A DNA stretch of 64,000 nt. It comes from an uncultured Ruminococcus sp. (GTDB lineage Bacteria; Bacillota; Clostridia; Oscillospirales; CAG-272). The number at the start of each line of letters is the position of its first letter. Positions within the stretch are counted from its first letter, which is position 1. Shown here in pieces: positions 38,701 to 58,753 of this stretch. Location of the stretch: NCBI GenBank assembly GCA_905202255.1, contig CAJKRH010000003.1:2466-66465 (forward strand). Direction: 5' to 3'. The position numbers and the translations under genes are program-made. Under the pieces are notes generated by a model. It was not told the DNA's origin. It ran no database searches and worked only from the letters and a program-made list of their open reading frames with translations.

Positions 38701-38939
38701 TTGATGATATGGATGTGCGCTATTTCACTCCGACAGAATTCGAGATGCAGCTCTACCAGCGTGTTTACGACAATCTGACCACAGAGATGGTGAAGCGTTA
38801 TCAGGAGCAGTCGGAATCAATCAAGGCTTATAATCGCAGAAAGATCGAGAACTGGGAGCGCATCCAGATGGAACAACTGATAGCGACATATATTCACATC
38901 CAGTGCAATGCAATCCGCATCTTGAATCAATCATATGTA

Positions 38940-40213: not shown

Positions 40214-40273
40214 CGTTGGCGGAGAGGAAGGGATTCGAACCCTTGTGCGCTTTCGCGCAAACTGATTTCGAGT
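40214..40273 (-). pseudogene. orphan 3' portion of tRNA-Ser(CGA), from the 3' end to the anticodon loop; left att-like junction
   Basis: 60 nt identical to 58346-58405. Identity ends after TGATTTCGAGT. The next ~25 nt (GTCATCACTTCCCGATACCTTGCGG) resemble only a degenerate tRNA 5' part (CACTTC..GATACCT). Confidence 0.85.
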
Positions 40274-42051: not shown

Positions 42052-42998
42052 AACCTATTTTTCGTATTTTGAAGATGCTTTCTTGCTACAAAATCCCTAC
42101 GGTAAAGAAAGTGTTTATCCCATCACCACCTGAAACAAATTAAATAACTAACGATAACGCCACACAGCCCCTTGATTCAAAAAGGATCAAGGGGCTGTTG
42201 TTATCTCGCCACACGCCCCAAATTCGGGCGCGTGACGGCTTTCTGATTTGCGTGCGGGAAAACGCTCCTCCGAGCCATTCAAAGCAGACACAGGCGATTC
42301 CAGCGGGCGTGCGAGGGGGATGCGGCACATAGTATGATTTCAATGTGTTGCGCCTCAGACTTGAATCGATTATCGGCAGTTATACAATGGATTTCACGAG
42401 TATTTTCAAGGGTCGATTTTCAAGCGGGAGAAAGGCAGTGCGTCAAACGCCCTGCCGGATTCACAGCGGACGGCAGAGCCGACCGCATTTTCTCGCGTTT
42501 TGACCGCATTTGCTCGTTTTTTTGCGCATATCGGTTAGAAGAAGGCAGTGTGTCAAGCACGCGTATAATCGCGGAATCGGTGTGTCAACCATACGCATGA
42601 TTCCGCAAAACAGGCGGATTTTTCGCTTGGTTGCGGGCGTTTCCCGTGTGTCAGGTATACACACAAAAAAATCAATATCTCTGCAACCAAGGGGGTAGTG
42701 TTTGTATCAGGTGAACCATGGGTGGGTTCACCATGAACCCCCAATGTAAACTATACAAGAGAAAGAATATATAGAAAAACAGAAAAAGAACAACAAAGAG
42801 AACGCCCGTTTCTCCGTTGCGCCGCGAATCGTTTCCTGAGTGCGCCGACGGGAATCGGCCGATCCGGTTTTCTTTTTCTGCTTTTTCTTTGTCCGAAAAA
42901 AGATTTCGTGAAAGATATTTTTTGATTCGATTATCAAAGCTAAGAGAGTGCCGACCGTTTTTCTGCAAAAAAGTTTGATAATTTTTTCGTCCAAACGC

Positions 42999-43230
42999 GA
43001 AAAAAGTGTGGAATATAGGGTGAGAGGAACTTTCCCTGAAAAAAAGTTTCCGCCGACAGGTTGTAAAATCTGAAAAAAGTGTGGAATACAGGGTGAGGAA
43101 GTTTTTTCAAAAAACTTTTCGCTCAAACCACAAAAAAGTGTGGAATACAGGGTGAGAGGACTTTCCCTGAAAAAAAGTTCCCACTGAAGGGCTATCAAAC
43201 CCGAAAAAAGTGTGGAATACAGGGTGAGGG
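42999..43230 (+). repeat. four iteron-like direct repeats (~28 nt) spaced 60-73 bp apart
   Basis: GAAAAAAGTGTGGAATA[T/C]AGGGTGAG(A)GG occurs at 42999, 43072, 43131 and 43203. Units 1 and 3 also share the following ACTTTCCCTGAAAAAAAGTT. Confidence 0.85.
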
Positions 43231-43675
43231 GAAAAATAATCCTCCGGGTTCATTGACAACCGAATAAAGGGATACCGAGGTAGCATCCCGCCTTGCCCGA
43301 AAGGGCGAGCCGCCGGGACCGGGCGCCATGACCTCACCTATCGGGTGAGCGAGCGATCAACCGTGTTGCCGGACCGACCGATAAACAGCATCGGCGGCAG
43401 GCGATGACAGAGGTGCGGAACAATGATACTTCTGCGAAAGCAGCCCGCGATTTGCATGCGGGATACGGGGGTTACGGGCTGGAACTCTTATGTCCGCGAC
43501 ACTGTATATGATCCTCGTTTCCGTGAAAATAGTCACGGAATAGATGCTGCGAGGTACTCGGTATCTCCCCTGTGGGCAACGGTCTGCGCCGTCTGACGAC
43601 TGCGCTCTCCGTTGCCCCATCGCCGGGGCTGATATAAATACGGCGATACAAAAAATAAGTTGGGAGGACAAAAGT

Positions 43676-43984: not shown

Positions 43985-44283
43985 ACATACAAACCGAAAT
44001 CAAGCCCTGCCTTGCGGATTATCCCGACGCTCTCACCGTGGTTGAAGTCATCGCTATCCTTCGCGTCAGTCGGAAAACGGTGTACGAGTTGATCAAAGAC
44101 GGGCGCATCAAAGCGGTCAAGGTCGGACGCAGTCACCGCATCGCAAAGGAGAATCTCATCGAATTTCTGAACCCCGCCGCGGCACATTCGAACCCCGGTT
44201 GTGTTCTTTCTGATAACAATCGGGAAAAGGTCTGGACTTGCGAACAACAGTGTGGTATGTTGTGTGTTGCGCGGACAGCGTAA
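43981..44283 (+). CDS. excisionase-family HTH protein (Xis-like)
   Basis: ATGA overlap with the upstream gene. LTVVEVIAILRVSRKTVYELIKDGRIKAVKVGRSHRIAKENLIEFL matches the HTH_17/excisionase pattern. Confidence 0.7.
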   Translation: MNIQTEIKPCLADYPDALTVVEVIAILRVSRKTVYELIKDGRIKAVKVGRSHRIAKENLIEFLNPAAAHSNPGCVLSDNNREKVWTCEQQCGMLCVARTA

Positions 44284-44310
44284 AACCAAAAGCACAAGGA
44301 GAAAAGCATC

Positions 44311-45513
44311 ATGCCACAAGCAAAAAATCATCTGACCGCCAGCACGCAAGCCAAGAACGGAAGCCTCTATGCGGTCATCCAGTACAAGGACGAGAACGGA
44401 AAGCGGAAAAACAAATGGAAGTCCCTCGGGCTGAAAGAAGGAGCTTCCAAAGCCAAAATCAACGCCGCCATGCGCGAGGCGGTCAATGACTTCGAGAAAG
44501 AGCTGACCGAAATTCTTACGCGCTCACAGAATCCAGATGCGGATATGCCGGTCTTCGAGTACATGGTCAAATGGCTCGGCAGCGTCCAGCCGAGCCTGCA
44601 AATCAACACCTATCGCAGTTACCACAACATGATCTACGGCAGAATCAAACGCTACTTCGGTCCGAAACCCATCACCATCGCAAGCCTGCGCCCGAACCAG
44701 ATCGACGAGTTCTATCAGTCCATCTTCGATGAAGGCATGGTCGCCAACACGGTCATTCACTATCACGCAGTCATGCGCCGCGCGTTCCAGCAGGCGTACA
44801 AGAAAGAAATCCTCTCTGCCAATCCCTTTGACCGCGTGGAACGCCCAAAGAAAAACAAATTCTTCGGTCAGAATCTCTCGGAAGAAGAACTGCTGACACT
44901 GCTCAGTCTCGCAAGATCGGAAGCCATCTACCCGGCAATCATCCTTGCAGGGTGCATGGGACTGCGACGGAGTGAAGCACTCGGCATGCGGTGGTCACGC
45001 ATTGACATGGAGAAGCGCGAGGTTCTGCTCGACACCAAGGTTGTAGAAGTCGAGATTGACGGCGAGAAAATTCTCAAACCGATTGAGGAAATGAAGAACT
45101 CCAGCAGTCGCAGAAGCCTGCCGATCCCCGCGCCGGTCTATGAAATGCTGGTCGAACAAAAGGCACAACAGGACCTCTACCGCCGTATGTTCAAGGGCAG
45201 TTACAACCGCGCATACGACGATTATGTGTGCACGGACAAGCTGGGCAACCTTCTGACACCGCGATATGTCACGCTCCGCTTCTCGCAGGTGCTTGAGAAG
45301 AACGGCATGCGGCACATCCGCTTCCACGACCTGCGACACACCTTCGCCAGCATTCTCATCAACAAGGACATCCCGCTGTTCAATGTATCGAAATACCTTG
45401 GTCACTCGGACATCAGTACAACGGCAAATATCTATGCGCACCTGGACAAGAGCGGAAAAGACATCAGTGCGGAAACCATCAGCGCGCTGTTTGATGATCG
45501 GCATCACGACTAA
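44311..45513 (+). CDS. tyrosine-type site-specific recombinase/integrase
   Basis: N-terminal arm-binding-like SLYAVIQYKDENGKRKNKWKSLGL. Catalytic residues in GLRRSEALGMRW, HDLRHTFAS and LGHSDISTTANIYAHL. Confidence 0.92.
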   Translation: MPQAKNHLTASTQAKNGSLYAVIQYKDENGKRKNKWKSLGLKEGASKAKINAAMREAVNDFEKELTEILTRSQNPDADMPVFEYMVKWLGSVQPSLQINTYRSYHNMIYGRIKRYFGPKPITIASLRPNQIDEFYQSIFDEGMVANTVIHYHAVMRRAFQQAYKKEILSANPFDRVERPKKNKFFGQNLSEEELLTLLSLARSEAIYPAIILAGCMGLRRSEALGMRWSRIDMEKREVLLDTKVVEVEIDGEKILKPIEEMKNSSSRRSLPIPAPVYEMLVEQKAQQDLYRRMFKGSYNRAYDDYVCTDKLGNLLTPRYVTLRFSQVLEKNGMRHIRFHDLRHTFASILINKDIPLFNVSKYLGHSDISTTANIYAHLDKSGKDISAETISALFDDRHHD

Positions 45514-45546
45514 TCGTGGTGCCGATTTCTGATAGGGGGTGAGTGC

Positions 45547-46083
45547 ATGGAACAGATCATCAGCGCGGATGCGGCAAGAGCGTACCTGCATATATCCAAA
45601 CGAAAATTCCTGTTTATGCTGCAAAACGGCTATATCCGATACGAGGACAACGGCAACAAAACGCATCGGTACTCATTGCGGATGTGCGATGTGGAAGCCC
45701 TGCGGAAGGAAATGACCGATCATCCCGAACGCTTTGCCGACCTGAATGGGCGGTTTACGGCGCAAAGAAACAAGCCGCCGACACCGACCATTGTACTGTC
45801 GCAGGAGGAAGCGAGAAAGTTACGCGAATACATAGCAAAATGTTGGAGCAAATATCCCGATGCCTTGCCAAGCAAGCTGGCGGCAGAGCTGACCGGCTTG
45901 ACGGTGGGAACGCTCAATCGCTACGTGGCAAGAGGCAACATCTTCGGTGCGGTGGTCGGCGGAAAAGTGCTGATCAGCAAGCAAAGCCTGATCGGACATA
46001 TCGCCTCTCCGGAGACGGCGCGCAAAGTCGGGACAGAGCAACTGCGAAATTTGCTTGCAGGGTATAAAAAAGAGAAAAAATAA
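45547..46083 (+). CDS. double-HTH (excisionase-family-like) DNA-binding protein, full-length copy
   Basis: 178 aa. Two HTH_17-like segments: ..AARAYLHISKRKFLFMLQNGYIRY.. and ..AAELTGLTVGTLNRYVARGNIFGAVVGGKVLISKQSL.. Confidence 0.75.
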   Translation: MEQIISADAARAYLHISKRKFLFMLQNGYIRYEDNGNKTHRYSLRMCDVEALRKEMTDHPERFADLNGRFTAQRNKPPTPTIVLSQEEARKLREYIAKCWSKYPDALPSKLAAELTGLTVGTLNRYVARGNIFGAVVGGKVLISKQSLIGHIASPETARKVGTEQLRNLLAGYKKEKK

Positions 46084-46134
46084 AGAGCAAAGGAATGGTC
46101 TTGAGATGTTCTCAAGGTTGTTCCTTTGCTCTTT
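45583..46134 (+). repeat. ~555-bp direct repeat, copy B (HTH gene plus compound terminator hairpin)
   Basis: Pairs with 37095-37649. It ends with hairpin AGCAAAGGAA...TTCCTTTGCT, which encloses CTTGAG..CTCAAG. Confidence 0.85.
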
Positions 46135-46241
46135 GCCAGCAACTTGACAAAAACAAACCACTTACTAAACCTTGTGTCTTCAATTTCGAACATGAATTTC
46201 GCATTTGCAAAGTCAAATTTCGACATTATGCTTTCCACCAC

Positions 46242-46270
46242 TTGTTTTTCTGCAGCAAATATGATATAAT
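46242..46270 (+). promoter_or_regulatory. sigma70-type promoter of the defence operon
   Basis: TTGTTT (46242-46247), a 17-nt spacer, and TATAAT (46265-46270), 30 nt upstream of ATG 46301. Confidence 0.55.
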
Positions 46271-46300
46271 ATAATGAGTCTATTGGGTTAGGAGTAAAAC

Positions 46301-46528
46301 ATGAGTGTGAGTTACAAAAAGCTGTGGAAGCTATTGATTGATAAGGACATGAAGAAAAAAGATCTCCAGTTGGCTACCGGTCTCAGTTCTTCAACCATTG
46401 CAAAAATGACAAAGAACGAATCGGTCAATACAGAAGTGCTTGTCAAAGTCTGCACGGCGCTCGGCTGCGATATAGGCGACATTATGGAAGTGATTCCGGA
46501 TATCAAATCTGACACGGAGAAACGCTAA
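46301..46528 (+). CDS. XRE-family HTH protein (controller-like, 75 aa)
   Basis: LLIDKDMKKKDLQLATGLSSSTIAKMTKNESVNTEVLVKVCTALGCDIGDIMEV is a Cro/C1-type HTH. Its stop overlaps the next start (TAATG). Confidence 0.8.
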   Translation: MSVSYKKLWKLLIDKDMKKKDLQLATGLSSSTIAKMTKNESVNTEVLVKVCTALGCDIGDIMEVIPDIKSDTEKR

Positions 46529-49500
46529 TGGAACTTATCGATAATATCAACAAAACATTGAAAGATGACCTGGCAGATTCGATACACAGCGGGAGTAAAA
46601 TATCCATTGCCGCAGCTTGCTTTTCGATATACGCCTTTCAAGCGTTAAAAGATCAACTTACACAAATAGATGAGCTGCGTTTTATTTTCACCTCCCCGAC
46701 ATTCATCGCCGAGAAAGCCAAAAAAGAACGCCGGGAGTTTTATATTCCTCGCCTTACGCGAGAAAGAAGCCTTTATGGAACGGAGTTTGAAATAAGGCTA
46801 CGCAATGAGTTGACTCAAAAAGCCATTGCTAAAGAATGTGCAGATTGGATCCGAGCGAAAGTTACTTTCAAATCCAACATCAGTGATAAATCCATCCAAG
46901 GGCAATTAGTGGTTGACGATGCAGGCTATACACCAATCAATGGCTTTACGACAGTTGAACTCGGCTGCGAAAAAGGAAACGCAATGAACACAACCATCGT
47001 AAAAGATGCTTCTCTTGCTAAAACGCTCTTGGCAGGATTTAATGATATTTGGTCTGACAGCAAATTGCTTCAAAATGTGACAGACGAAATTATCGATAGC
47101 ATCTCCACTGCTTACAACGAGAATTCACCCGAATTCATCTACTTTGTAACGCTCTATAATATCTTCAACGAATTCCTTGAAGATATTTCAGAAGATGTTT
47201 TGCCGAATGAAGCGACCGGATTTAAGGAAAGTAAAATCTGGGGAATGCTTTATAACTTCCAAAGGGATGCTGCATTGGCGATTATCAATAAACTTGAAAA
47301 GTTCAACGGATGCATCCTGGCAGACAGCGTGGGATTGGGCAAAACCTTCACCGCACTGGCGGTTATTAAGTACTACGAAAACCGCAACAAATCGGTTCTC
47401 GTCCTCTGCCCTAAAAAACTGGCGAACAACTGGAACACCTATAAGGATAACTATGTCAATAATCCAATCGCCGCTGACCGTCTTCGCTATGATGTGCTTT
47501 ATCATACTGACCTGTCGAGAAACCACGGTTCCTCCAATGGTTTAGACTTGGATCGCTTGAACTGGGGCAATTATGATCTGGTCGTAATCGATGAATCACA
47601 CAACTTCAGAAACGGCGGGAAATCCGGCGGCGATTCGGAAAAAGAAAACAGATATCTCCGACTTTTGAACAAAGTCATCAGAACAGGTGTAAAGACCAAG
47701 GTTTTAATGCTCTCGGCAACGCCGGTAAACAATCGTTTTAATGATTTGAAAAATCAGCTTGCGCTTGCTTATGAGGGTAATTCAAACCTGATCAACGAAA
47801 AACTGAACACCAAAAGCACAATTGAGGAAATATTCCGTCAGGCTCAGCGGGCGTTTAACACATGGAGCAAACAAGATCCTCGCAGCAGAACCACCGAAAG
47901 CCTCCTGAAAATGCTGGACTTCGATTTCTTTGAGGTACTGGATTCTGTTACGATTGCCCGTTCAAGAAAGCACATTGAAAAATACTATGATACCGCAGAT
48001 ATCGGTTCTTTTCCGGAAAGGCTTAAGCCAATTTCCTTGTATCCGCCACTGACAGATCTGCGCAGTGCGATCAACTATAACGAAATATTTGAGCAGCTGA
48101 TGCTTTTGAATCTTGCAATTTATACTCCATCCCACTACATTCTCGACAGCAAAAAAAGCAAATACGCTGATTTGTTTGACGATGAAAAGGTTAATGTGGG
48201 CTTTACACAGGCGAACCGAGAGCAAGGCATCAGGCGTTTGATGGCAATCAACCTGATGAAACGAATGGAAAGCTCCGTCGCATCGTTCAGACTCACATTG
48301 AGCCGGATTGACAATCTGCTGAAAACAACGATATCAACCATTGACAGCTTCAATCAGTATTCCGATACCAACGTCAATCTGGAAGACATCTCTCAGCTGA
48401 ACGATTTTGATCTTGATGACCAAAACGATGATGAACTCTTTTCTTTCGGGAAAAAGGTCAAAATCAATCTGAGCGATATGGACTATACATCATGGCGCAG
48501 AGATCTTGCAAAGGACAAAGAAACCATTGAACTTTTGACTGTCATGGTTGCTGATATTACACCGGAGCATGACAGCAAATTGCAGGAGCTTTTCAGAGTT
48601 CTCTCAAATAAGATTGAGCATCCCATCAATGACAATAATCGAAAGGTTATTATTTTCACCGCATTTTCTGATACCGCAGAGTACCTTTATGAGAATGTGA
48701 GCAGGTTTGTTCTCCAAAACTATCATTTGAACACCGCAATGGTAACAGGCTCGGTTGACGGCCGTTCAACCGTTCCTCGTCTGCACTGCGATATGAATAC
48801 CGTGCTGACTTGCTTCTCTCCGATCTCTAAAGATAAAGAACTGCTGATGCCCGGTGATACGACAGAAATAGATGTGCTGATTGCAACCGACTGTATTTCC
48901 GAAGGTCAGAACCTGCAGGATTGCGACTATCTCATCAATTACGATATTCACTGGAATCCCGTTCGCATCATTCAGCGGTTCGGGCGTATCGACCGTATCG
49001 GAAGCCGCAATAAAGTCATTCAGCTGGTAAACTTCTGGCCAAATGTTACACTTGACGAATATATAGACCTCAAGGCACGTGTTGAAACCCGTATGAAGAT
49101 CGTTGATATGACCGCAACCGGAGACGACAACATATTGCAAGAAGAAAAGTCCGATCTGGAATACAGGAAAGCACAATTGAAGCGCCTCCAGGAAGAAGTC
49201 GTTGATATCGAGGAAATGTCCTCCGGCATCTCCATCATGGATCTGGGCTTAAATGAATTCCGGCTCGACCTGCTGGAATATGTCAAAGCAAATCCCAATC
49301 TTGACAAAACACCGTTCGGACTTCACGCCGTAGCCGCTTCAAATGATGAATGCCCTCCGGGCGTTGTGTTCGTGCTGAAGAACCGATCAAACAGCATCAA
49401 TATCGACCACCAGAATCGGCTGCATCCGTTCTATATGGTGTATATTGCCGATGATGGCGAAGTTGTTTGCGACCACCTTTCGCCCAAAGCAATGCTGGAC

Positions 49501-49755
49501 AAGCTCCGCTATTTGTGCAAAGGTAAAGCCACGCCGATTCCGGAACTGTACCGTCGGTTCAATAAGGAAACGAAAGACGGACGCAATATGCAAGCAACCT
49601 CCGCATTGCTTGGAGATGCGATTGCATCCATTATCGAAACCAAAGAAGAAAGCGAGATTGATACATTCCTTGGCGGTGGTCAGATGAGCTTTTTGTCAAA
49701 CGAAATCAAGGGGCTGGATGATTTTGAACTGATCTGCTTCTTGGTCGTAAAATAA
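46528..49755 (+). CDS. SNF2-family helicase with ~230-aa N-terminal extension (possibly an inactivated PLD-like N-domain)
   Basis: Motif I ILADSVGLGKT, motif II VVIDESHNFRN, and C-terminal lobe ATDCISEGQNLQDCDYLINYDIHWNPVRIIQRFGRIDRIGS. I could not find an HxK..D motif in the N-terminal region. Confidence 0.85.
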   Translation: MELIDNINKTLKDDLADSIHSGSKISIAAACFSIYAFQALKDQLTQIDELRFIFTSPTFIAEKAKKERREFYIPRLTRERSLYGTEFEIRLRNELTQKAIAKECADWIRAKVTFKSNISDKSIQGQLVVDDAGYTPINGFTTVELGCEKGNAMNTTIVKDASLAKTLLAGFNDIWSDSKLLQNVTDEIIDSISTAYNENSPEFIYFVTLYNIFNEFLEDISEDVLPNEATGFKESKIWGMLYNFQRDAALAIINKLEKFNGCILADSVGLGKTFTALAVIKYYENRNKSVLVLCPKKLANNWNTYKDNYVNNPIAADRLRYDVLYHTDLSRNHGSSNGLDLDRLNWGNYDLVVIDESHNFRNGGKSGGDSEKENRYLRLLNKVIRTGVKTKVLMLSATPVNNRFNDLKNQLALAYEGNSNLINEKLNTKSTIEEIFRQAQRAFNTWSKQDPRSRTTESLLKMLDFDFFEVLDSVTIARSRKHIEKYYDTADIGSFPERLKPISLYPPLTDLRSAINYNEIFEQLMLLNLAIYTPSHYILDSKKSKYADLFDDEKVNVGFTQANREQGIRRLMAINLMKRMESSVASFRLTLSRIDNLLKTTISTIDSFNQYSDTNVNLEDISQLNDFDLDDQNDDELFSFGKKVKINLSDMDYTSWRRDLAKDKETIELLTVMVADITPEHDSKLQELFRVLSNKIEHPINDNNRKVIIFTAFSDTAEYLYENVSRFVLQNYHLNTAMVTGSVDGRSTVPRLHCDMNTVLTCFSPISKDKELLMPGDTTEIDVLIATDCISEGQNLQDCDYLINYDIHWNPVRIIQRFGRIDRIGSRNKVIQLVNFWPNVTLDEYIDLKARVETRMKIVDMTATGDDNILQEEKSDLEYRKAQLKRLQEEVVDIEEMSSGISIMDLGLNEFRLDLLEYVKANPNLDKTPFGLHAVAASNDECPPGVVFVLKNRSNSINIDHQNRLHPFYMVYIADDGEVVCDHLSPKAMLDKLRYLCKGKATPIPELYRRFNKETKDGRNMQATSALLGDAIASIIETKEESEIDTFLGGGQMSFLSNEIKGLDDFELICFLVVK

Positions 49756-49774
49756 AATCAAAGGAGGCATGGAT

Positions 49775-50380
49775 ATGCTTGGATTCCCACAGAAAACAGA
49801 ATTACGAAAACCACTACATAAAAAAGTGATTTTTGAAAAGCTTCAACTGAACACCTTACAGCAAGATCGTGTGGATGCAGACATTTCACGCCTCTATTTT
49901 GTCAATGAGATCTCGCCTTACAGCGTAGGGATTACAGATGGAGAAGCCGTCAAGGCGTTTTATGTGATCCTGGTCTGCCTCAAGCGGAAGGATTATGACG
50001 ATAAAACGATCTCGATGCTCTTTCGCTTGATCGACAACAAAATGATTCTCGTTCTGCAATATGAAACCGAAAGCCGGGTGGCGATCTTTCATGGGAAACT
50101 CATTCAAACGGATTGGAAGCCAACAGACGCATTTTCCTTCTCCCTGCAAGGGCTGAACCTTGATTCAGTATGGAACAACCTAATCATTCAAATCGGGGAT
50201 ATTCACCCTGAAAGCGGACGCTCCATTGAAGAACAGATTGCACTTGACGAACAACGAAAAAAGATAGAAAAGGAAATTGCGTCTCTCGAAAAAATGGCAC
50301 GAGCGGAAAAACAGCCGAAAAAGAAGTTTGAACTGGTGCAACGGATTAGAGCTTTAAAAGAAAATCAAAATTCACCATAA
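49775..50380 (+). CDS. DUF4391-like protein
   Basis: MLGFPQKTELRKPLHKKVIFEK... and ...SLQGLNLDSVWNNLIIQIGDI match my memory of DUF4391 proteins (LP..T...IPK..F; L.GLN.D.VY.N...QI), followed by a C-terminal coiled-coil tail. Start set at the second ATG, 7 nt after AAGGAGG. Confidence 0.6.
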   Translation: MLGFPQKTELRKPLHKKVIFEKLQLNTLQQDRVDADISRLYFVNEISPYSVGITDGEAVKAFYVILVCLKRKDYDDKTISMLFRLIDNKMILVLQYETESRVAIFHGKLIQTDWKPTDAFSFSLQGLNLDSVWNNLIIQIGDIHPESGRSIEEQIALDEQRKKIEKEIASLEKMARAEKQPKKKFELVQRIRALKENQNSP

Positions 50381-50393
50381 GGAGGTTGTCGTT

Positions 50394-50912
50394 ATGTTTC
50401 TATATAAATTGCTACTCACTCTAAACGCAACATCATGGATGGCGATCATATATGTAATAAAAGAAGGTTGGACAATTGGGAAAGTGCCAAATCATTTGTT
50501 TGGAATACTGCTTTTGATAATTCCGATCTTTCTGTCATGGATTTCGCTTATTATGACTCGTTTTTTAGGAATTGAATCTTTAGTTGGTAATTGCAAAGAG
50601 TTTAGCCTTGCAGATGGGGAGTTTCTACCGATATATTTGGGGTATTTCTTTGTTTCCGTGGGAGTTTCTGACCTCTTTACAATGGCAGTGGTATACCTCA
50701 TAGTATTTGTCTTTACCTTTTTATCACAAACACAATACTATAATCCCATATATCTGCTTTTTGGCTATCATTACTACCACGTCACGACTGAAAATGGTAC
50801 AAGTATTTTTATTATCAGAAAAGGTCCAGTTATTCGAAATTCCGCAGAGCTAAGATTCGATCATTTGCATCGTTTGAACAATACAACTTTTATTGAGAGG
50901 AAGACAAAATGA
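50394..50912 (+). CDS. small ~4-TM membrane protein (KwaA-like candidate)
   Basis: 172 aa with AAGGAGG 8 nt upstream. Hydrophobic segments lie at about residues 3-24, 34-57, 76-92 and 96-112, followed by a ~60-aa soluble tail. About 33% GC by hand count of the first 60 nt. Confidence 0.6.
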   Translation: MFLYKLLLTLNATSWMAIIYVIKEGWTIGKVPNHLFGILLLIIPIFLSWISLIMTRFLGIESLVGNCKEFSLADGEFLPIYLGYFFVSVGVSDLFTMAVVYLIVFVFTFLSQTQYYNPIYLLFGYHYYHVTTENGTSIFIIRKGPVIRNSAELRFDHLHRLNNTTFIERKTK

Positions 50913-51754
50913 GTAATATATGTGTAAAATTAAAGCAACGTGAAAACAGCAAGTATCGACTGATGCTTTCATCAGATGAAACTATCTTTCCGGTATTTGA
51001 TCCGGAAAGTGCTTCAACATCACCATACACTCCGGGAGCAACGCTTGAAGATGATGATTGGTTTTGCATTCAGAATGTTCGGGATACTGAATATAGCATA
51101 GATTTGCTTTCTGAAACCTTTACCACCGTAGACTTGGCTTTACTCACTCATGCAGAATTTGAAAGGATAGATTACCTGTTTGCATTTGATGATAGATTCA
51201 TCTTCTTTCAGAATATATCCAAGTCAAATTTGATTGCACAAAAAAGAATTTTCCGCTTTGGAGAAGAATTCAAATACAGAACCAACTGCTCGGAAATTGT
51301 TATCAGAGAAATTCCGGATGCAATTTATGATAAAACCACCGACAGCCTATATTTCCGTAAACTCGAATCTATCACCAGTATATTCAGGGGGATAGATATG
51401 CTTTATCGCGAAGCCACGCAAGAAGAAACAGATTCTTTTCTTGCAAATGATTTTATCAACTTAAAGGATGACTATTCCGGCAGCAAAGTAAAAACCGCCA
51501 ACAGAAAAAGGATTGCTCTTGCAGCAAAAACCCTGTCGGAGCTTGGAGAAACCGATCGAAAGAACATCTTTGCCTACATAGGCGAATACTGTCCCGAATT
51601 GAAAGTTTCAGAAAATGCTTTTGAAGTTGGTTCTGAAAATGAATTGAAAATGCTGCTGTATGGTATCGAGCAGAGGTTTTATACTACTCCGGTTGGTGGA
51701 GAGAAACGCCTTGCCAATTCGGTTATTACATTGAATCAAGGAGGACAAGCATAA
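50909..51754 (+). CDS. 281-aa soluble protein, DUF4868/KwaB-like candidate
   Basis: ATGA overlap with the 4-TM gene. The segment ..IREIPDAIYDKTTDSLYFRKLESITSIFRGIDMLYREATQEETDSFL.. resembles the DUF4868 core as I remember it. Not verified. Confidence 0.5.
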   Translation: MSNICVKLKQRENSKYRLMLSSDETIFPVFDPESASTSPYTPGATLEDDDWFCIQNVRDTEYSIDLLSETFTTVDLALLTHAEFERIDYLFAFDDRFIFFQNISKSNLIAQKRIFRFGEEFKYRTNCSEIVIREIPDAIYDKTTDSLYFRKLESITSIFRGIDMLYREATQEETDSFLANDFINLKDDYSGSKVKTANRKRIALAAKTLSELGETDRKNIFAYIGEYCPELKVSENAFEVGSENELKMLLYGIEQRFYTTPVGGEKRLANSVITLNQGGQA

Positions 51755-53736
51755 TGGATAAACTGAAAATGCAAACGGCGAACAAAGCCGATGAGAACTA
51801 CAGAAAGCTGGCGGAGATGTTCCCGAACGCCGTGACGGAGACGATTGACGAGAACGGCGAGGTTGTTCGTGCCATTGACAAGGATGTGCTGATGCAGGAA
51901 ATCAACACAAAGGTCGTTGACGGAAAAGAGGAACGCTATCAGTTCACCTGGCCGGACAAGAAGAAATCTGTCCTGCTGGCGAACGCTCCCATTTCCAAAA
52001 CGCTGCGTCCAGTTCGTGATGATGAAACAAAACCCACCGGTGCGGACAGTGAGGGAAAACCTTATTGTAGCACTGGCAGCGTGGACTTTGATACCACCGA
52101 AAACCTCTATATCGAGGGTGATAACCTTGAAGTGCTGAAGCTCCTGCAGGAAACCTATCTCGGCAAAATCAAGATGATTTACATAGACCCGCCGTACAAT
52201 ACGGGAAATGACTTTGTGTATGAGGATGATTTTGCCCAAAGCACTGATGAGTACCTTGCAAATAGCGGACAGTTTGACGAGTACGGCAACCGTATGGTGC
52301 AGAACACCGAGAGCAACGGTCGTTTCCATACGGACTGGCTTAATATGATGTACACCCGTTTGCGAATTGCTAAAGATTTGCTTGCAGATGATGGTGTTAT
52401 TTTCATATCGATTGATGATAACGAGATTGCTAATCTCAGCAAAATGTGCGATGAAATATTTGGTAGTGATAACGCCATAGCTGTGTTTCCAAGACTTGCG
52501 ACAAAGAGTGGTAAGACCCCTCTAACATTTATGGTGAGTCACGATTATGTTCTTTGCTATACGAAATCCAGGCATGATATTTTTGTCGGACAAGCATTTG
52601 AGGACGATAGTTATAAATACTCCGATGAATACGAGGCGGAAAGAGGAAGGTATAATCTCAAGCAACCTCTGGATTGTAATTCGATAAGTTACTCAGCTTC
52701 TCTTGACTATCCAATTACACATGAAGGAGTCACTTATTATCCGGGTAGTGATTATAACAAATATCTTGAGAGACAAAGCGGTAAACATCTACCCAAAGAT
52801 TACGCATGGCGATGGTCAAAAGAGTTGTTCGAGTTTGGCTTGAAAAACGGATGGATTGTTTTTCAAAACGGGCGAATCTATACAAAGGGGTATCTTAACG
52901 CTGCGATTGAAAAACAGCCGAACGGGTCTTATGCTGTCGTAAAGAGAGAAAAAACACGAAAAATGTCTACCATTGATTTTATATCAAACGATTATTCTAA
53001 CGACATTGCCAAGAAGCAACTTGCTTCTCATAAAATTTCTGCTCGATTTGATTTTCCAAAACCAGTGGATTTAATTAAGGCATTGTTGGCTACGCACTAT
53101 GATAAAGATGCTTTGGTTGTAGATTTTTTCAGCGGATCTGCTACTACCGCCGAAGCTGTTTTTAAGCAGAACATAACAGATGGTGGCAATCGAAGGTTTA
53201 TTCTTGTCCAGTTGCCCGAGGAAACACAAGATAGTACATACAAAAACATCTGTGAAATCGGCAAGGAACGCATCCGTCGTGCCGGTAAGAAAATCAAAGA
53301 AGAAGCGGGACTTACTGCACAAAACCTCGACATCGGTTTCCGTGTTCTGAAGTGCGATACCTCCAACATGAAAGATGTGTATTACAATCCCGACGATTAT
53401 GAAATCGGTATGTTCGATCAGCTGACTGACAACATAAAGGAAGACAGAACTCCCGAAGATTTGCTTTTCCAGGTTATGCTCGATCTTGGCGTTCTTCTGT
53501 CAAGCAAAATTGAGGAAACCACCATTGCCGGTAAGAAGGTGTTCAATGTGGAGGGTAACTACCTGATCGCCTGCTTTGATGACAATGTAACCGACGAAGT
53601 CATTACGGCAATTGCAAAACAAGAACCGTACTACTTTGTCATGCGCGATAGCTCCATGGCTTCCGACAGCGTGGCAACCAACTTCGATCAGATTTTCGCT
53701 ACCTATAGTCCGACCACGATAAGGAAGGTGCTATGA
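51754..53736 (+). CDS. type III-like N6-adenine DNA methyltransferase (Mod, beta-class, DPPY)
   Basis: Motif IV MIYIDPPYNTGNDFVY precedes motif I VVDFFSGSATTAEAV. This order, with a variable middle region, is typical of Mod subunits. Confidence 0.88.
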   Translation: MDKLKMQTANKADENYRKLAEMFPNAVTETIDENGEVVRAIDKDVLMQEINTKVVDGKEERYQFTWPDKKKSVLLANAPISKTLRPVRDDETKPTGADSEGKPYCSTGSVDFDTTENLYIEGDNLEVLKLLQETYLGKIKMIYIDPPYNTGNDFVYEDDFAQSTDEYLANSGQFDEYGNRMVQNTESNGRFHTDWLNMMYTRLRIAKDLLADDGVIFISIDDNEIANLSKMCDEIFGSDNAIAVFPRLATKSGKTPLTFMVSHDYVLCYTKSRHDIFVGQAFEDDSYKYSDEYEAERGRYNLKQPLDCNSISYSASLDYPITHEGVTYYPGSDYNKYLERQSGKHLPKDYAWRWSKELFEFGLKNGWIVFQNGRIYTKGYLNAAIEKQPNGSYAVVKREKTRKMSTIDFISNDYSNDIAKKQLASHKISARFDFPKPVDLIKALLATHYDKDALVVDFFSGSATTAEAVFKQNITDGGNRRFILVQLPEETQDSTYKNICEIGKERIRRAGKKIKEEAGLTAQNLDIGFRVLKCDTSNMKDVYYNPDDYEIGMFDQLTDNIKEDRTPEDLLFQVMLDLGVLLSSKIEETTIAGKKVFNVEGNYLIACFDDNVTDEVITAIAKQEPYYFVMRDSSMASDSVATNFDQIFATYSPTTIRKVL

Positions 53737-53737
53737 G

Positions 53738-55036
53738 TTGAAGCAAATAACAGAAATAACACGAAGAGATATCTTCGCTTTGTTTCAATATGGCATGGAT
53801 ATAGACGAATTGTGGGAAACCAAACGAGTACGCTATGGCTATTATGGCAACCTAAGCGAGATTGATTTTCTCAAACGGATTTATGACCTCAAAGAACTTC
53901 CGAGTTATGATAATCGTTTTGAAGATGCCGAGGGCGACATATGGCAGCACACGATAAATAACGACGATTATGAAAATGGTTGGATTTTTGAGGACGATAG
54001 ATTTGAACTCTTGAATGGCGACGATGAAGTTCTGCTGAAGTTCTTATGTGCTGTTTTTCATCCTGCGGTTAGGTATGAAAAAGGTTATTGGAAAGAAATT
54101 CTTGATGCAGTAAACGGACTGCTTCACAACGACGGCTATGAGCTTTATCCGGAAAGCAAAATATCCGGACGAGATGTGTATGGTTGGCGTAAATACGACC
54201 AGGAGGAAAGTTCTTTGTTTGTCCCTTTCTCACAAAGGCACGAAAAGGCAATAAAGGCAAAAGAGCTTAAACTCTCGTTGAGTATGAAAATCCGAAACCA
54301 AATTTACAAACTTATCGAAAGATACTCAACCGTATATCGTGAAACCGATGATACTGGATGGAACTATGATATTACTACGAGTGAATGTATCTTTAGAGAT
54401 ATTTCACAGTTCTATAAGCCGAAGTGCTTTGACGCAAGCAATAATTATGTTGAAACCTCGGATATGGAGCAATTTATTCTGCATAATTCACCATTCTGCG
54501 TTCTTGATGTGATTGAGTTGTGCGAAAAGTACAATGCCGAAAGTGATTATTCGTCTCAGATGAATACACTTTTTAAGTTAAATTCGGTTGGATACAGATT
54601 AGAACAAGGGAGAGTTGTAAGTACCTTCGAAGTCCCTATTGACAAAAAGGTTGTATCGGATATTTCCGAACAAGGTTTGAAGGAACTTATAGAAGAAGCA
54701 GATAACTATTATCGAGCAGGCAATAAACAGATTGCAGTAGAGAAAATATGGGATGCTTTTGAGAGACTGAAAACCTTTTATTCTCCGGCACTTAATAAGG
54801 CATCATCTGCGAACAAAATAATTGATGATATGAGTTCTTCAGACCCTCACTATAAGGCTATGTATGAAGACGAGTTCAAGGCACTAACGAACATTGGCAA
54901 TGGGTTCAGAATTCGCCATCACGAAACGACCAAGGTTGATATTACGGACAATCGACAATACGACTATTTTTACAAGCGTTGTCTTGCCTTGATTTCTGTC
55001 GCTATCCTATACTTGGAAGGAGGAAGTCACAAATGA
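53738..55036 (+). CDS. 432-aa AbiJ-like protein: conserved N-terminal module plus HEPN-like C-terminus (candidate)
   Basis: TTG start 8-10 nt after AAGGAAGGTG. The N-terminus reads ..FLKRIYDLKELPSYDNRFEDAEGDIWQHTINNDDYENGWIFEDDRFELLNGDDEVLLKFLCAVFHPAVR.. The C-terminus reads ..IWDAFERLKTFY...LTNIGNGFRIRHHETTK.. About 33% GC in the first 60 nt. Confidence 0.5.
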   Translation: MKQITEITRRDIFALFQYGMDIDELWETKRVRYGYYGNLSEIDFLKRIYDLKELPSYDNRFEDAEGDIWQHTINNDDYENGWIFEDDRFELLNGDDEVLLKFLCAVFHPAVRYEKGYWKEILDAVNGLLHNDGYELYPESKISGRDVYGWRKYDQEESSLFVPFSQRHEKAIKAKELKLSLSMKIRNQIYKLIERYSTVYRETDDTGWNYDITTSECIFRDISQFYKPKCFDASNNYVETSDMEQFILHNSPFCVLDVIELCEKYNAESDYSSQMNTLFKLNSVGYRLEQGRVVSTFEVPIDKKVVSDISEQGLKELIEEADNYYRAGNKQIAVEKIWDAFERLKTFYSPALNKASSANKIIDDMSSSDPHYKAMYEDEFKALTNIGNGFRIRHHETTKVDITDNRQYDYFYKRCLALISVAILYLEGGSHK

Positions 55037-58000
55037 AATTCAAATTCAAGATACAGGGGTACCAAACCGATGCGGTAGACGCAGTGGTGAAAGTATTTGG
55101 CGGACAACCGTTTCAGGAAAGAACAAATTTCCGTCGGGATGTCGGCAAACTGTCGGCTCCGCAGCAAATTGCTTTGGAAATCGATGAGGACGGCGAAGCG
55201 CTTAACAGCGAGGTCGGCTATAAAAACGCCGCCGTGGAACTTTCCGACGATCAACTGCTTCGCAATATCAATGAGATTCAGTCACAGAACAATATTAAAC
55301 TTTCTTCCGCTTTAACCAGCGGAAGCAACTGCGGAAGATGCAGTCTTGATATTGAAATGGAAACCGGCACGGGCAAAACCTATGTCTACATCAAGACGAT
55401 GTTTGAGCTGAACAAGCGGTATGGCTGGAGCAAGTTCATTGTGGTCGTACCGTCAATCGCAATCCGTGAAGGCGTCAAAAAGTCGTTTGAAATCACCGAA
55501 GATCACTTCATGGAGAACTACGGCAAGAAAGCAAGATACTTTATCTACAACAGCTCAAATCTGGAGCAGCTCGATACTTTTTCTTCAAGCTCCGGCATCA
55601 ATGTCATGATCATCAATACACAGGCATTTGCCGCTTCACTGAAAGAGGACGGTAAGAGCAAGGAGGCGAAGATAATTTTCTCTCCGCGCGATACCTTTGG
55701 CTCCCGCAAGCCGATTGATGTTATTGCAGCTAACCATCCGATTCTCATTATGGATGAGCCGCAGAAAATGGGCGGCGAAGTGACGCAGAATGCACTCAAG
55801 AACTTTCATCCGCTGTTCACGATCAACTATTCTGCAACGCATAAAACGCAGCACAATCTTGTCTATGTATTGGATGCGTTGGATGCTTTCAACAAACGCC
55901 TGGTCAAGAAGATTGAGGTCAAGGGCTTTGAGGTAAAGAATTTCAGAGGAACAGACCATTATCTCTACTTTGAGAGCATTATTCTTTCCCAAAAGAAGCC
56001 TCCTATGGCTCGGATCGAGCTTGAAATCGGCTACAACAAATCGGTCAACCGGGAAACCCGTGTTCTCGGTGTCGGCGACGATCTGTTCTACATTTCGCAG
56101 GAAATGGGGCAATACAAAGGCTATACCATTTCGGAAATTGATCCGATTCAGAATACCATAACCTTCACAAACGGTGTTGTTCTGAAAGCCGGCGAGATCG
56201 TAGGAGATATTTCAGAACGGGATATGCGCCGAATCCAGATCAGAGAAACCATTCTTTCACATTTTGAGAAAGAAGAAAAACTCTTTAATATGGGCATCAA
56301 GTGCCTCTCATTGTTTTTCATCGATGAAGTATCAAAATATCGCCAGTACGATGAAAACGGAGACGAGAAACTCGGCGAGTACGGACAGATGTTCGAGCAG
56401 GAGTATATCAGCGTCCTCAACGACTATGTAACCTTGCTCGATACGCCTTATCAACGGTATCTGAAATCGACTTGCTCCGATGTATCCGCCGTACATAAAG
56501 GCTACTTCAGCATCGATAAGAAGACCGGCAGAAGCATCGACAGCGAGTTGAAGCGCGGCAGTGAATTCTCAGATGATATTTCTGCCTACGATCTGATCCT
56601 CAAAAACAAGGAGCGTCTGCTGTCATTTGAAGAACCGACACGGTTTATTTTCTCTCATTCCGCATTGCGTGAAGGTTGGGATAATCCGAATGTATTTCAG
56701 ATCTGCACATTGAAGCATTCAGACAGTCAAACAGCAAAACGCCAAGAGGTCGGACGAGGGCTTCGCCTTTGCGTCAATCAAACCGGAAGTCGTATGGATT
56801 CCGAGACGCTCGGTTCTTCGGTGCAGGATGTAAATCTCTTGACGGTTGTGGCAAGCGAAAGCTACCGTGATTTTGTCGGAGCCTTACAGTCAGACATTAA
56901 GACGGTTCTTTATGACAGACCGACTACCGCAACAAGCGAGTATTTCAACGGCAAGTATGTGAAAGTCAACGATGTCCCGACCCTGATCGATAAAAACGCA
57001 GCAGATACAATTGAATTCTATCTCATCAGTAACGGCTATGTAAATATGCAGCGTAAGGTCACGGACAAGTACCGCATGGATGTGCAAATGGGAACAATCG
57101 CTCCGCTTCCGGCAGAACTTGAACCTATGAGCGGTGGGATTCATACATTGATTCAATCGGTATATGATGATACCGTCATTGATGATATGTTCACCGACGG
57201 ACATGAATCTGCCATTAAAGAAAATCCGCTGAATGATAACTGGGCAAAGAAGGAATTCCAAGCCCTTTGGAATCAGATCAACCACAAGTACGCATACACT
57301 GTATCTTTTGACAGCAATGAATTGATCGCCAAGGCAATCGCTCATATTGATGACAAATTATTCGTTTCCGAACTGCAATACACAACTTCTATCGGCAGAC
57401 AGAAAACAGAAATGAATGAGTATGAGGTCGACAGAGGTGAATCGTTCGGTTCTGTAAAAACGAGAACGCAGACTCTCAGGCACGCAGAAACCAGTCAGGT
57501 CAAGTATGACCTGATCGGTAAAATAGCCGGTGGGACGACTCTGACAAGAAAAACCGTGGCGGCAATTCTGAAAGGAATACGCCAGGACAAACTTTATATG
57601 TTCAGGAATAACCCGGAGGAATTCATTTCAAAGGTTATTCGGTTGATCAACGAGCAAAAGGCAACCATGATTGTGGAGCATATCTCCTATAACTCAATCG
57701 AAGGCGGATTTGACAGTGGTATTTTTACTGCGGATAAGAGCAAACAAGCCTTTGATAAAGCATTCAGAGCCGAAAAGGCGATTCAGGATTATGTTTTCAC
57801 AGATGGCTCCGCCGAGCAAAGCATCGAACGCAAATTCGCACAGGATCTCGATGCTGCCGCAGAAGTCTGCGTATATGCAAAACTGCCGAAGGGCTTCCAC
57901 ATTCCAACTCCTGTTGGCAATTACTCTCCCGACTGGGCGATTGCTTTCTATGAGGGGACAGTGAAGCACATATTCTTTGTTGCCGAAACAAAGGGAACGA

Positions 58001-58146
58001 TGGAAAGTCTGAATCTCCGTCCAATCGAGCAAGCCAAAATTTCTTGCGCAAAGAAACTGTTCAATGAGATGTCCAACAGCCAAGTTCGCTATCATGATGT
58101 GGATAGCTATCAGAGTCTGTTAGACATTATGAACTCAATGGTTTAA
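55033..58146 (+). CDS. type III restriction enzyme Res subunit (SF2 helicase plus C-terminal PD-(D/E)xK-like nuclease)
   Basis: Start ATG 55033 (MKFKFKIQGYQTDAV) after GGAAGGAGGAAG, with an ATGA overlap. Motifs METGTGKTY and ILIMDEPQKM, and a C-terminal ..YSPDWAIAF...IFFVAETKG. Confidence 0.88.
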   Translation: MKFKFKIQGYQTDAVDAVVKVFGGQPFQERTNFRRDVGKLSAPQQIALEIDEDGEALNSEVGYKNAAVELSDDQLLRNINEIQSQNNIKLSSALTSGSNCGRCSLDIEMETGTGKTYVYIKTMFELNKRYGWSKFIVVVPSIAIREGVKKSFEITEDHFMENYGKKARYFIYNSSNLEQLDTFSSSSGINVMIINTQAFAASLKEDGKSKEAKIIFSPRDTFGSRKPIDVIAANHPILIMDEPQKMGGEVTQNALKNFHPLFTINYSATHKTQHNLVYVLDALDAFNKRLVKKIEVKGFEVKNFRGTDHYLYFESIILSQKKPPMARIELEIGYNKSVNRETRVLGVGDDLFYISQEMGQYKGYTISEIDPIQNTITFTNGVVLKAGEIVGDISERDMRRIQIRETILSHFEKEEKLFNMGIKCLSLFFIDEVSKYRQYDENGDEKLGEYGQMFEQEYISVLNDYVTLLDTPYQRYLKSTCSDVSAVHKGYFSIDKKTGRSIDSELKRGSEFSDDISAYDLILKNKERLLSFEEPTRFIFSHSALREGWDNPNVFQICTLKHSDSQTAKRQEVGRGLRLCVNQTGSRMDSETLGSSVQDVNLLTVVASESYRDFVGALQSDIKTVLYDRPTTATSEYFNGKYVKVNDVPTLIDKNAADTIEFYLISNGYVNMQRKVTDKYRMDVQMGTIAPLPAELEPMSGGIHTLIQSVYDDTVIDDMFTDGHESAIKENPLNDNWAKKEFQALWNQINHKYAYTVSFDSNELIAKAIAHIDDKLFVSELQYTTSIGRQKTEMNEYEVDRGESFGSVKTRTQTLRHAETSQVKYDLIGKIAGGTTLTRKTVAAILKGIRQDKLYMFRNNPEEFISKVIRLINEQKATMIVEHISYNSIEGGFDSGIFTADKSKQAFDKAFRAEKAIQDYVFTDGSAEQSIERKFAQDLDAAAEVCVYAKLPKGFHIPTPVGNYSPDWAIAFYEGTVKHIFFVAETKGTMESLNLRPIEQAKISCAKKLFNEMSNSQVRYHDVDSYQSLLDIMNSMV

Positions 58147-58163
58147 TTCAATAGCAACTCAAA

Positions 58164-58199
58164 AACCGCCTGCGATTCAATCACGAACCGTAGGCGGTT
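58164..58199 (+). terminator. hairpin downstream of res (weak terminator)
   Basis: AACCGCCTGCG...CGTAGGCGGTT, an 11-bp stem with one G-U pair and a 14-nt loop. The T-tail is poor. Confidence 0.4.
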
Positions 58200-58314
58200 A
58201 TCTTCGCTCAACTATTGTTAAAGAAAGCGGAGAGATCATTTTATCTCTGCGTTATTTCTTTGAAGTTTTGATGCTCCATCGGCATCACTGTCAACTCGTT
58301 CGTATCCTATCGGT

Positions 58315-58344
58315 AAAAACAAAAAGGACACCTTTCGGTGTCCT
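58315..58344 (-). terminator. intrinsic terminator of the intact tRNA-Ser
   Basis: AGGACACC-TTTC-GGTGTCCT, followed on the minus strand by TTTTTGTTTTT. Confidence 0.8.
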
Positions 58345-58348
58345 GCGT

Positions 58349-58437
58349 TGGCGGAGAGGAAGGGATTCGAACCCTTGTGCGCTTTCGCGCAAACTGATTT
58401 CGAGTCAGCCCCGTTATGACCACTTCGATACCTCTCC
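58349..58437 (-). tRNA. tRNA-Ser (anticodon CGA), class II with long variable arm, CCA encoded
   Basis: The minus strand reads GGAGAGGTATCGAAGTGGTCATAACGGGGCTGACTCGAAATCAGTTTGCGCGAAAGCGCACAAGGGTTCGAATCCCTTCCTCTCCGCCA. It has a 7-bp acceptor stem GGAGAGG/CCTCTCC, anticodon loop CTCGAAA, T-loop GGTTCGAATCC and a hairpin variable arm. Confidence 0.92.
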
Positions 58438-58596
58438 ATATATGTTCACCCTCAAAAACAAGGGAAACAATCATTATTCAATTTTTTAGAAAACCCGTTA
58501 GATAAGTCGGTCAGAAAAATCATCAACCGAGCGAAAACCCAACAAAATCAAGGCTTTCCGGCGGTTTTCAGTGGCACAACTACTCAAATGTGTACA

Positions 58597-58639
58597 TGAT
58601 TTCGAGTCAGCCCCGTTATGACCACTTCGATACCTCTCC
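58597..58639 (-). repeat. orphan 5' portion of tRNA-Ser, from the 5' end to the anticodon loop; right att-like junction
   Basis: 43 nt identical to 58395-58437. Identity begins at TGATTTCGAGT. It lies about 50 nt downstream (minus strand) of a consensus promoter. Confidence 0.85.
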
Positions 58640-58689
58640 GTATATAAGAATGAGGCAAAACCGATTTATGCGCCTCACTTTGCTAAAGC

Positions 58690-58718
58690 ATTATAGCACA
58701 TAAAATCGGTTTTGTCAA
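58690..58718 (-). promoter_or_regulatory. consensus sigma70-type promoter of the ancestral tRNA-Ser gene
   Basis: On the minus strand: TTGACA (58718-58713), a 17-nt spacer, and TATAAT (58695-58690). Confidence 0.75.
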
Positions 58719-58753
58719 CGGGAAAAGTCCATACTTGAAAAAATTATTTTCTT

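Follow-up and report, generated by a model that had tools for sequence, protein, structure and literature searches.

The Kiwa defence system of Escherichia coli (O55:H7/ECOR) is encoded by kwaA and kwaB, whose products form KwaA tetramers and KwaB dimers that assemble into a membrane supercomplex and sense the disturbance of the membrane that accompanies phage attachment or DNA entry (PMC11785009). E. coli KwaB binds DNA non-specifically without cleaving it, so that replication and late transcription are blocked and the cell is not killed; defence is lost when either kwa gene is deleted, no restriction-modification (R-M) partner is involved, and Kiwa also lowers the efficiency of conjugation (PMC11785009). 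In a Gram-positive host, Streptococcus thermophilus 90730, a Kiwa system called by PADLOC has been found experimentally to be anti-phage (PMC11514479; PMC12322248). A second described theme is that of defence genes embedded in the same orientation within Hma, BREX, DISARM and type I R-M operons, which has been used for discovery (bioRxiv 10.1101/2024.01.29.577857); the PrrC anticodon nuclease of the EcoprrI type I R-M locus, cited in the same work, is almost always embedded. Here we describe a gene pair (50394-51754) in a stretch of 64,000 nucleotides (nt) of contig CAJKRH010000003.1, assembly GCA_905202255.1, from an uncultured Ruminococcus sp.; this whole stretch is referred to as the window and all coordinates are given on its numbering. 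The pair is very probably a divergent Kiwa, carried as exchangeable cargo inside the operon of a type III R-M system. The two open reading frames (ORFs) are:

50394..50912, plus strand: kwaA-like gene, 172 amino acids (PADLOC KwaA, AlphaFold2 model, Foldseek match 9mrg)
50909..51754, plus strand: kwaB-like gene, 281 amino acids (PADLOC KwaB, AlphaFold2 model, Foldseek matches 9nyu, 9mrx and 9mtn)

The locus resembles the E. coli system (PMC11785009) in its kwaA-kwaB order, in a small protein predicted to have four transmembrane helices and a cytoplasmic beta domain, and in a soluble second protein with two predicted domains, the C-terminal half being of the DUF4868 type. This order, a small membrane protein followed by a soluble protein of about 300 residues encoded in the same orientation, is kept in relatives from three phyla. 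Since both ORFs have many homologues with strongly conserved columns and stay together in distant phyla, they are real genes. The first-pass annotation, made from the letters and ORF translations, had given the extents of both, joined them by an ATGA overlap and proposed that they were Kiwa; the sequence bears out the extents and the overlap, and the identification is upheld by PADLOC profiles of both KwaA and KwaB and by fold comparisons in which all of the significant matches in the PDB are to KwaA or KwaB.

The 172-residue protein is matched by nine PADLOC KwaA models, the best of which (E 1.2e-11) aligns residues 3-168 with positions 5-170 of a 173-position model. Homologue searches returned 693 relatives with strongly conserved columns, and precomputed annotation with Pfam PF28043 (KwaA) is present on many homologues at 60-80% identity. 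The AlphaFold2 model, built on the family alignment (pLDDT 87, pTM 0.81), contains helices at residues 2-23, 33-57, 77-110 (77-90/94-110) and 112-123 and strands at 67-72 and 125-168, such that the loop between the second and third transmembrane helices and the C-terminal 45 residues form the strands of the putative cytoplasmic beta domain. In the published KwaA there are likewise four transmembrane helices, with an intracellular loop and a C-terminus made of beta strands (PMC11785009), and the predicted secondary structure agrees with this layout. Foldseek comparison of the model with the PDB gave three significant matches, all of them chains of the KwaA tetramer 9mrg (best E 1.7e-4, probability 1.0, TM-score 0.53), the next match having an E-value of 0.74. 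The four transmembrane helices proposed at first pass are supported by the predicted structure and the KwaA match, whereas plain hydropathy resolves two broad hydrophobic blocks (28-60 and 82-113) and a less hydrophobic N-terminal helix. In PHROGs, the 172-residue protein has one weak match, to a family of unknown function, and the 281-residue protein has none.

For the 281-residue protein three PADLOC KwaB models, annotated as DUF4868 domain, match with E-values of 1.1e-14, 4.1e-13 and 5.3e-9, and the best alignment pairs residues 30-271 with positions 39-287 of a 292-position model. The family is large, with 2239 matches when clustered at 90% and 655 representatives when clustered at 50%, and has strongly conserved columns; Pfam PF16162 (KwaB) matches 6 of 59 diverse members (best E 2.2e-5). 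Residues N198 and R199 hardly vary and are followed by a basic KR pair, and this NRKR motif (198-201) is a candidate for a role in DNA binding. The AlphaFold2 model built on the family alignment (pLDDT 93, pTM 0.81) predicts a soluble protein with an N-terminal alpha/beta domain and a C-terminal helical domain resembling DUF4868. Six matches in the PDB were significant and all are KwaB (9nyu, 9mrx and 9mtn), extending over the full length with E-values of 4e-7 to 3e-5, probability 1.0 and TM-scores of 0.59-0.63; the next match has an E-value of 0.72. The similarity to DUF4868/KwaB on which the first-pass identification depended is thus present in profiles and in structure. No match to this protein was found in phage genomes by tblastn. 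On these profiles and predicted folds both proteins are true, if distant, homologues of KwaA and KwaB, and as neither is named by Pfam or NCBIfam they belong to a divergent clade.

The pair is also found in other surroundings. Homologues of the 281-residue protein at 67-81% identity occupy slot 1 of five other, diverged SNF2-DUF4391-Mod-Res backbones of the kind described below (L001, L094, L096, L100 and L101), where the cargo of the second slot differs wherever the contig reaches it. In type I R-M operons (L005, L006 and L102), which are headed by an HTH_26 gene similar to that of the window, the pair occurs at 62% identity with a DUF4357 gene on one side and hsdM on the other, and here too the methyltransferase gene is the next one downstream. 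On a Clostridia contig the pair, at 67-68% identity, is surrounded by unrelated genes only, and more distant pairs are solitary on Roseivivax and Apilactobacillus plasmids, in the same order in each case and labelled as hypothetical proteins on the plasmids. Because the same pair occurs alone in these places, it is, as far as gene content tells, an autonomous two-gene module.

In the window the pair is part of an operon that also encodes an SNF2-family helicase, a DUF4391 protein and a type III R-M system, in which Mod is an N6/N4 methyltransferase and Res combines a helicase-type ATPase with an endonuclease domain. The elements of this operon, together with the segment that is exchanged, are as follows:

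46301..46528, plus strand: HTH_26 (Cro/C1-type) gene, the first of the operon (Pfam HTH_26, E 3.2e-21)
46528..49755, plus strand: SNF2-family helicase, 1075 amino acids, backbone (Pfam SNF2-rel_dom and Helicase_C; PADLOC 'HKD+Snf2', E 3.6e-129)
49769..50380, plus strand: DUF4391 protein, backbone, left border of slot 1 (Pfam PF14335, E 2.3e-26)
50363..51739, no strand assigned: exchanged segment, slot 1 cargo, non-homologous to L010 (blastn of the window against L010)
50379..50385, plus strand: AAGGAGG Shine-Dalgarno sequence of kwaA, overlapping the DUF4391 stop codon (read from the sequence)
51740..51756, plus strand: conserved junction GGAGGacaagcaTAATG, comprising the mod ribosome-binding site and the stop/start overlap (alignment of the window, L008, L010, L012, L001, L094 and L096)
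51754..53736, plus strand: type III Mod methyltransferase, backbone (PADLOC MTase_III, E 2.8e-204)
53738..55036, plus strand: slot 2 cargo, AbiJ_NTD3/NTD4 protein, PADLOC candidate PDC-S32 (Pfam, E 1.2e-54; PADLOC PDC-S32, E 4.2e-52)
55033..58146, plus strand: type III Res endonuclease, backbone (PADLOC REase_III, E 3.5e-290; Pfam ResIII and RE_endonuc)

The flanking genes are assigned to their families without ambiguity, and the profile matches to DUF4391 and MTase_III confirm the location between a DUF4391 gene and mod given at first pass. The junctions on either side of the pair are tight: the kwaA ATG follows the DUF4391 stop after only 13 nt, the kwaB ATG (50909) overlaps the kwaA TGA as ATGA, and the kwaB TAA overlaps the mod ATG as TAATG at 51752-51756. 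In the same alignment as above, the GGAGG...TAATG junction before mod has the same design, with small base differences, when other cargo is present, and in empty alleles the same GGAGG is found at the end of the DUF4391 gene. The junction encodes the tail of the 281-residue protein, which is poorly predicted (pLDDT 72 at residues 271-280 and 44 at the last residue).

Comparison with sister islands places the borders of the cassette at these same junctions. Against L010, in which SNF2 and Res are 98% and 99% identical to those of the window, blastn homology runs at 94.5% identity up to position 50362, 18 nt before the DUF4391 stop, and resumes at 51740, in the GGAGG of mod; between these points a TIR protein of 291 amino acids (PADLOC PDC-S66) replaces Kiwa, while the AbiJ-like gene of the second slot is the same. 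The reverse is seen in L008 (96% nucleotide identity), which has the same Kiwa pair, with both ORFs 98-99% identical to those of the window, and in which the AbiJ-like gene is replaced by a SLFN_AlbA_2/HATPase_c_4 gene, homology breaking at the mod stop (53736) and returning at the res ATG (55033). In L012 slot 1 contains a DUF4365 protein of 598 amino acids. The Kiwa proteins of L001, L094 and L096 are 77-86% identical to those of the window when the DUF4391 proteins are just 37-50% and the Mod proteins 53-56% identical, and this disparity speaks for transfer of the Kiwa cassette between backbones and argues against a specific DUF4391-Kiwa partnership.

Base composition follows the same borders. 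The GC values counted by hand at first pass, 33.3% in the first 60 nt of the 172-residue gene, and 45% in nt 1-60 and 60% in nt 61-120 of mod, were exact on recount, and the GC content at third codon positions (GC3) of whole genes is also lower in the pair than in the backbone: 0.335 in kwaA, 0.351 in kwaB and 0.386 in the AbiJ-like gene, compared with 0.45-0.53 in SNF2, DUF4391, Mod and Res and 0.54-0.70 in the flanking chromosomal and integrase genes. That the low GC is a local accident was considered and rejected, as both cargo slots are low in GC3 and the homology breakpoints coincide with the borders of the cassette.

The extent of this exchange was surveyed in 80 species-representative (GTDB) genome loci that encode relatives of DUF4391, almost all of them from gut or rumen Clostridia; the species-representative set has 192 DUF4391 loci in all, and metagenomes have thousands. 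Slot contents were counted in 73 loci, namely 68 of these representatives, the window and four metagenome contigs, using local profiles of the window proteins. The backbone is HTH-SNF2-DUF4391-[slot 1]-Mod-[slot 2]-Res, with two hypervariable cargo slots. The interval from DUF4391 to Mod ranges from -38 to 6215 nt (median 981) and slot 1 is empty in 8 of the 73 loci; that from Mod to Res ranges from -4 to 3633 nt, with slot 2 empty in 7 of 64. Two loci, L048 and L087, have the bare four-gene SNF2-DUF4391-Mod-Res system. The Kiwa family of the window was found in 0 of the 80 representative loci, and on this ground, its absence from every one of them, a core role for the pair in the SNF2-DUF4391 system was considered and rejected. 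The insertion of a cassette, as proposed at first pass, is borne out by the near-identical backbones that have other genes or none at the same junction, and the proposal also withstood the wider comparison of related backbones, in which the pair is not universal.

The 157 cargo ORFs fall into 78 clusters, none of which is common to both slots, and 156 of them (88/88 in slot 1 and 68/69 in slot 2) have the orientation of the operon. Beyond Kiwa, the occupants include known or candidate defence genes and many unknown genes. Slot 1 cargo includes TIR/ThsB-like, SIR2-HerA, SpbK, AbiH, KAP NTPase, RES, SieB and mad3/mad8 genes and the PADLOC candidates PDC-S02, S06, S66, M38 and M50. Slot 2 cargo includes RhuM (PDC-S05), PDC-S19, S23 and S32, Septu PtuA/PtuB, AbiE and Abi_C/AbiJ. 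Four families recur in slot 1: one of about 280 amino acids (10 loci, e.g. L015, L016 and L026), one of 351-420 amino acids (8 loci, e.g. L019, L024 and L034), one of about 214 amino acids (5 loci, e.g. L020, L025 and L074) and a DUF4365 family of 598 amino acids (10 loci, e.g. L012, L017 and L022). None of the four has a PADLOC match and they have little or no Pfam annotation; by their embedding they are candidate new defence genes. A carrier with two sharply bounded slots, holding 78 cargo families in about 70 loci, is a source for the discovery of defence systems by embedding, and is in this respect more useful than the Kiwa call itself.

The window pair shares the features of embedded cargo, in that it is flanked by DUF4391 and mod, which share its strand, and its carrier exists both without it and with alternatives. 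As in the published survey (bioRxiv 10.1101/2024.01.29.577857), the cargo is co-oriented within a DNA-modification system and many alternative cassettes are found at the same place; three candidates of that survey, PDC-S05, PDC-S32 and PDC-S66, recur in slots of the window type. The sharing of a transcript by a membrane-sensor pair and an R-M/helicase system, considered unusual at first pass, is accordingly less unusual than was assumed, as co-oriented embedding in DNA-modification defence operons had already been described in this work. Unlike the operons described there, the carrier here is an SNF2-DUF4391-type III operon and its two slots have non-overlapping repertoires. Neither type III R-M, DUF4391 nor Kiwa is mentioned in the main text of the survey, and a full-text literature search for DUF4391 returned unrelated papers only. 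The PrrC/EcoprrI locus is similar in that an R-M operon there, too, has a further defence gene inside it; it differs in that the R-M proteins regulate PrrC, whereas Kiwa has its own sensor and needs no such dependence. The S. thermophilus 90730 Kiwa is located in a defence island as a neighbour of R-M systems, whereas the window pair is nested between the genes of one operon. E. coli Kiwa, by contrast, stands alone, and the window pair is embedded in another operon in a host that, to judge by its relatives, is probably a gut Clostridia member (monoderm); a megablast of the entire operon against E. coli genomes gave no match, and E. coli is not the source. The finding therefore adds to two known kinds, divergent Kiwa and embedded cargo. 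With it Kiwa comes to include a divergent clade that occurs commonly in metagenomes of gut Clostridia and that standard annotation leaves as 'hypothetical protein', as the labels of the plasmid copies and the silence of Pfam and NCBIfam illustrate.

Several observations weigh against reading the pair as a Kiwa carried as passive cargo. Neither protein has a Pfam match, and for the 281-residue protein this holds at E-values up to 1 and includes PF16162 itself; the NCBIfam KwaA equivalog model scores 17.5 bits on the 172-residue protein against a cut-off of 100, and by this score the protein is not an E. coli-type KwaA equivalog. Searches of the PDB by sequence and by profile, with both proteins and both family alignments, gave no meaningful match, and among the PDB searches the link to the solved Kiwa structures came through fold comparison alone. 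The two proteins share just 8-16% identity with the solved KwaA and KwaB, the TM-scores are moderate (0.53-0.63) with a root-mean-square deviation of about 6 Å, and KwaB of the window has 281 residues against about 315 in E. coli. Finally, in the clade with at least 62% identity to the window KwaB, 9 of 10 distinct sampled contexts (seven SNF2-DUF4391-type III backbones and two DUF4357-type I operons) have an R-M methyltransferase gene immediately after the pair, a bias that could mean more than passive carriage.

Given this low identity, the empty PDB sequence searches and the silence of Pfam and NCBIfam, the mechanism described in E. coli can be carried over to the window pair by analogy, and in its details it probably applies, with distinctly less confidence than we place in the identification as Kiwa. 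KwaA tetramers in the membrane would hold KwaB dimers, the complex would react when phage attachment or DNA entry disturbs the membrane, and KwaB would bind the incoming DNA without cutting it, blocking replication and late transcription. The pair would be transcribed from the operon promoter together with the R-M genes and would act apart from them, as a second, sequence-independent layer of defence. The cassette may have arrived by homologous recombination in the conserved flanks, that is, the 3′ end of the DUF4391 gene and the ribosome-binding site and 5′ end of mod. A promoter and terminator scan of 44000-58800 gave counts equal to those of shuffled sequence, with no convincing internal signal around the cassette, and shows only that there is no obvious break in the operon.

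The foremost alternative is that the pair depends functionally on the R-M/SNF2 system as its accessory module, either as a back-up for when restriction is inhibited, in the way that PrrC is linked to EcoprrI, or by stalling phage DNA for Res to cut. The position upstream of methyltransferase genes in nine of the ten contexts is what this would lead one to expect, as is the tight translational coupling of the pair to both neighbours, yet the same pair is found alone, and most backbones lack Kiwa and have unrelated cargo or none. That slots 1 and 2 have no cargo family in common also favours this alternative, although such slot fidelity is expected as well if exchange runs by flanking homology. 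The low identity of the DUF4391 proteins found beside the same Kiwa speaks against the proteins being specific partners, Kiwa is equipped with a sensor of its own, and defence in E. coli needs both kwa genes and no R-M partner. We consider this alternative unlikely. A related and improbable proposal is that the operon is a dedicated two-slot carrier whose junctions plug cargo into translation and in which this Kiwa clade is coupled to restriction. If true, KwaB could hold incoming DNA at the site of entry while Res acts, or take over under restriction inhibition, and the locus would be a composite membrane-sensor/R-M system and not two independent layers.

The operon rides on an integrase-bearing island inserted at tRNA-Ser. 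Two exact direct repeats of about 59 nt enclose about 18 kb that contain an AAA_14/DUF4143 ATPase gene, a NikA-like gene, HTH_17 genes, a tyrosine integrase gene and the whole operon. The elements that define the island are:

40215..40273, no strand assigned: left direct repeat, 59 nt, 3′ part of tRNA-Ser, island boundary (exact 25-mer match and alignment)
44311..45513, plus strand: tyrosine integrase (Pfam Phage_integrase, E 2.9e-27)
58347..58405, no strand assigned: right direct repeat, within tRNA-Ser(CGA) (exact 25-mer match and alignment)
58349-58437, minus strand: tRNA-Ser(CGA)

In a megablast of the island against plasmids the tRNA was the sole match. The location of the operon on an integrase/NikA-like island between tRNA-Ser repeats, together with the effect of E. 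coli Kiwa on conjugation, allows for the possibility that the Kiwa-fold proteins serve the island itself, for example in the exclusion of competing elements or in entry exclusion during transfer. This is very improbable: anti-plasmid activity already falls within the described Kiwa phenotype, so that service to the island is not a separate mechanism, and the neighbours in both slots across alleles are anti-phage genes. Least credible of all is that the two genes are passengers, silent or in decay, for although the GC3 of the cassette is below that of its surroundings and a promoter of its own was not detected in a scan that performed no better than chance, neither ORF is disrupted, both share 98-99% identity with their L008 counterparts, their columns are conserved across thousands of homologues and they have good ribosome-binding sites. 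A divergent Kiwa acting on its own from an exchangeable cassette thus remains the reading that we prefer.

Some further observations concern the backbone. The HTH_26 gene is kept at the start of related operons in the allele comparison and its product is probably the operon regulator. For the N-terminus of SNF2 (46528-47200) the best PADLOC model carries the name 'HKD+Snf2'; within the N-terminal 230 residues, however, Pfam detects no PLD domain and inspection by eye revealed no HxK motif, and this domain may be an inactivated PLD-like domain. Within mod, homology breaks at about 52465-53100/53238 in comparisons with L010, L012, L001 and L032, which are otherwise near-identical alleles. In view of what is known of type III Mod proteins, the swapped central region is probably the target-recognition domain, and its exchange, if true, would alter the specificity of the R-M system. 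Res scores 387 bits with the NCBIfam type III endonuclease model, under its cut-off of 564. The longest res ORF opens at a TTG at 54979, while the called genes and the homology to other alleles begin at the ATG at 55033, which is the likely true start.

Traces of other recombination events may be present around the island. The 5′ half of tRNA-Ser is duplicated exactly over 42 nt at 58598-58639, 200 nt upstream of the intact gene. A perfect TTGACA-17-TATAAT promoter on the minus strand (58718-58690) lies just ahead of this duplicate, which may be the scar of another integration event. Inside an ORF (38419-38778) with weak similarity to integrases, the tRNA 3′ repeat occurs a third time in degenerate form (38463-38487), with 3 mismatches over 25 nt, which suggests that an older tandem island has left a remnant here. 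At 42956-43248, ahead of the NikA-like, HTH_17 and integrase genes, there are three direct repeats of about 70 nt with the core AAAAAAGTGTGGAATACAGGGTGAG. Metagenome contigs related to the window terminate at these repeats, which may be putative binding sites for the recombination or transfer proteins of the island. Just upstream of the NikA-like gene, at 43422-43507 on the plus strand, lies a match to the Rfam 'dinG RNA' motif (RF03082), with 63 bits against a gathering score of 46.9.

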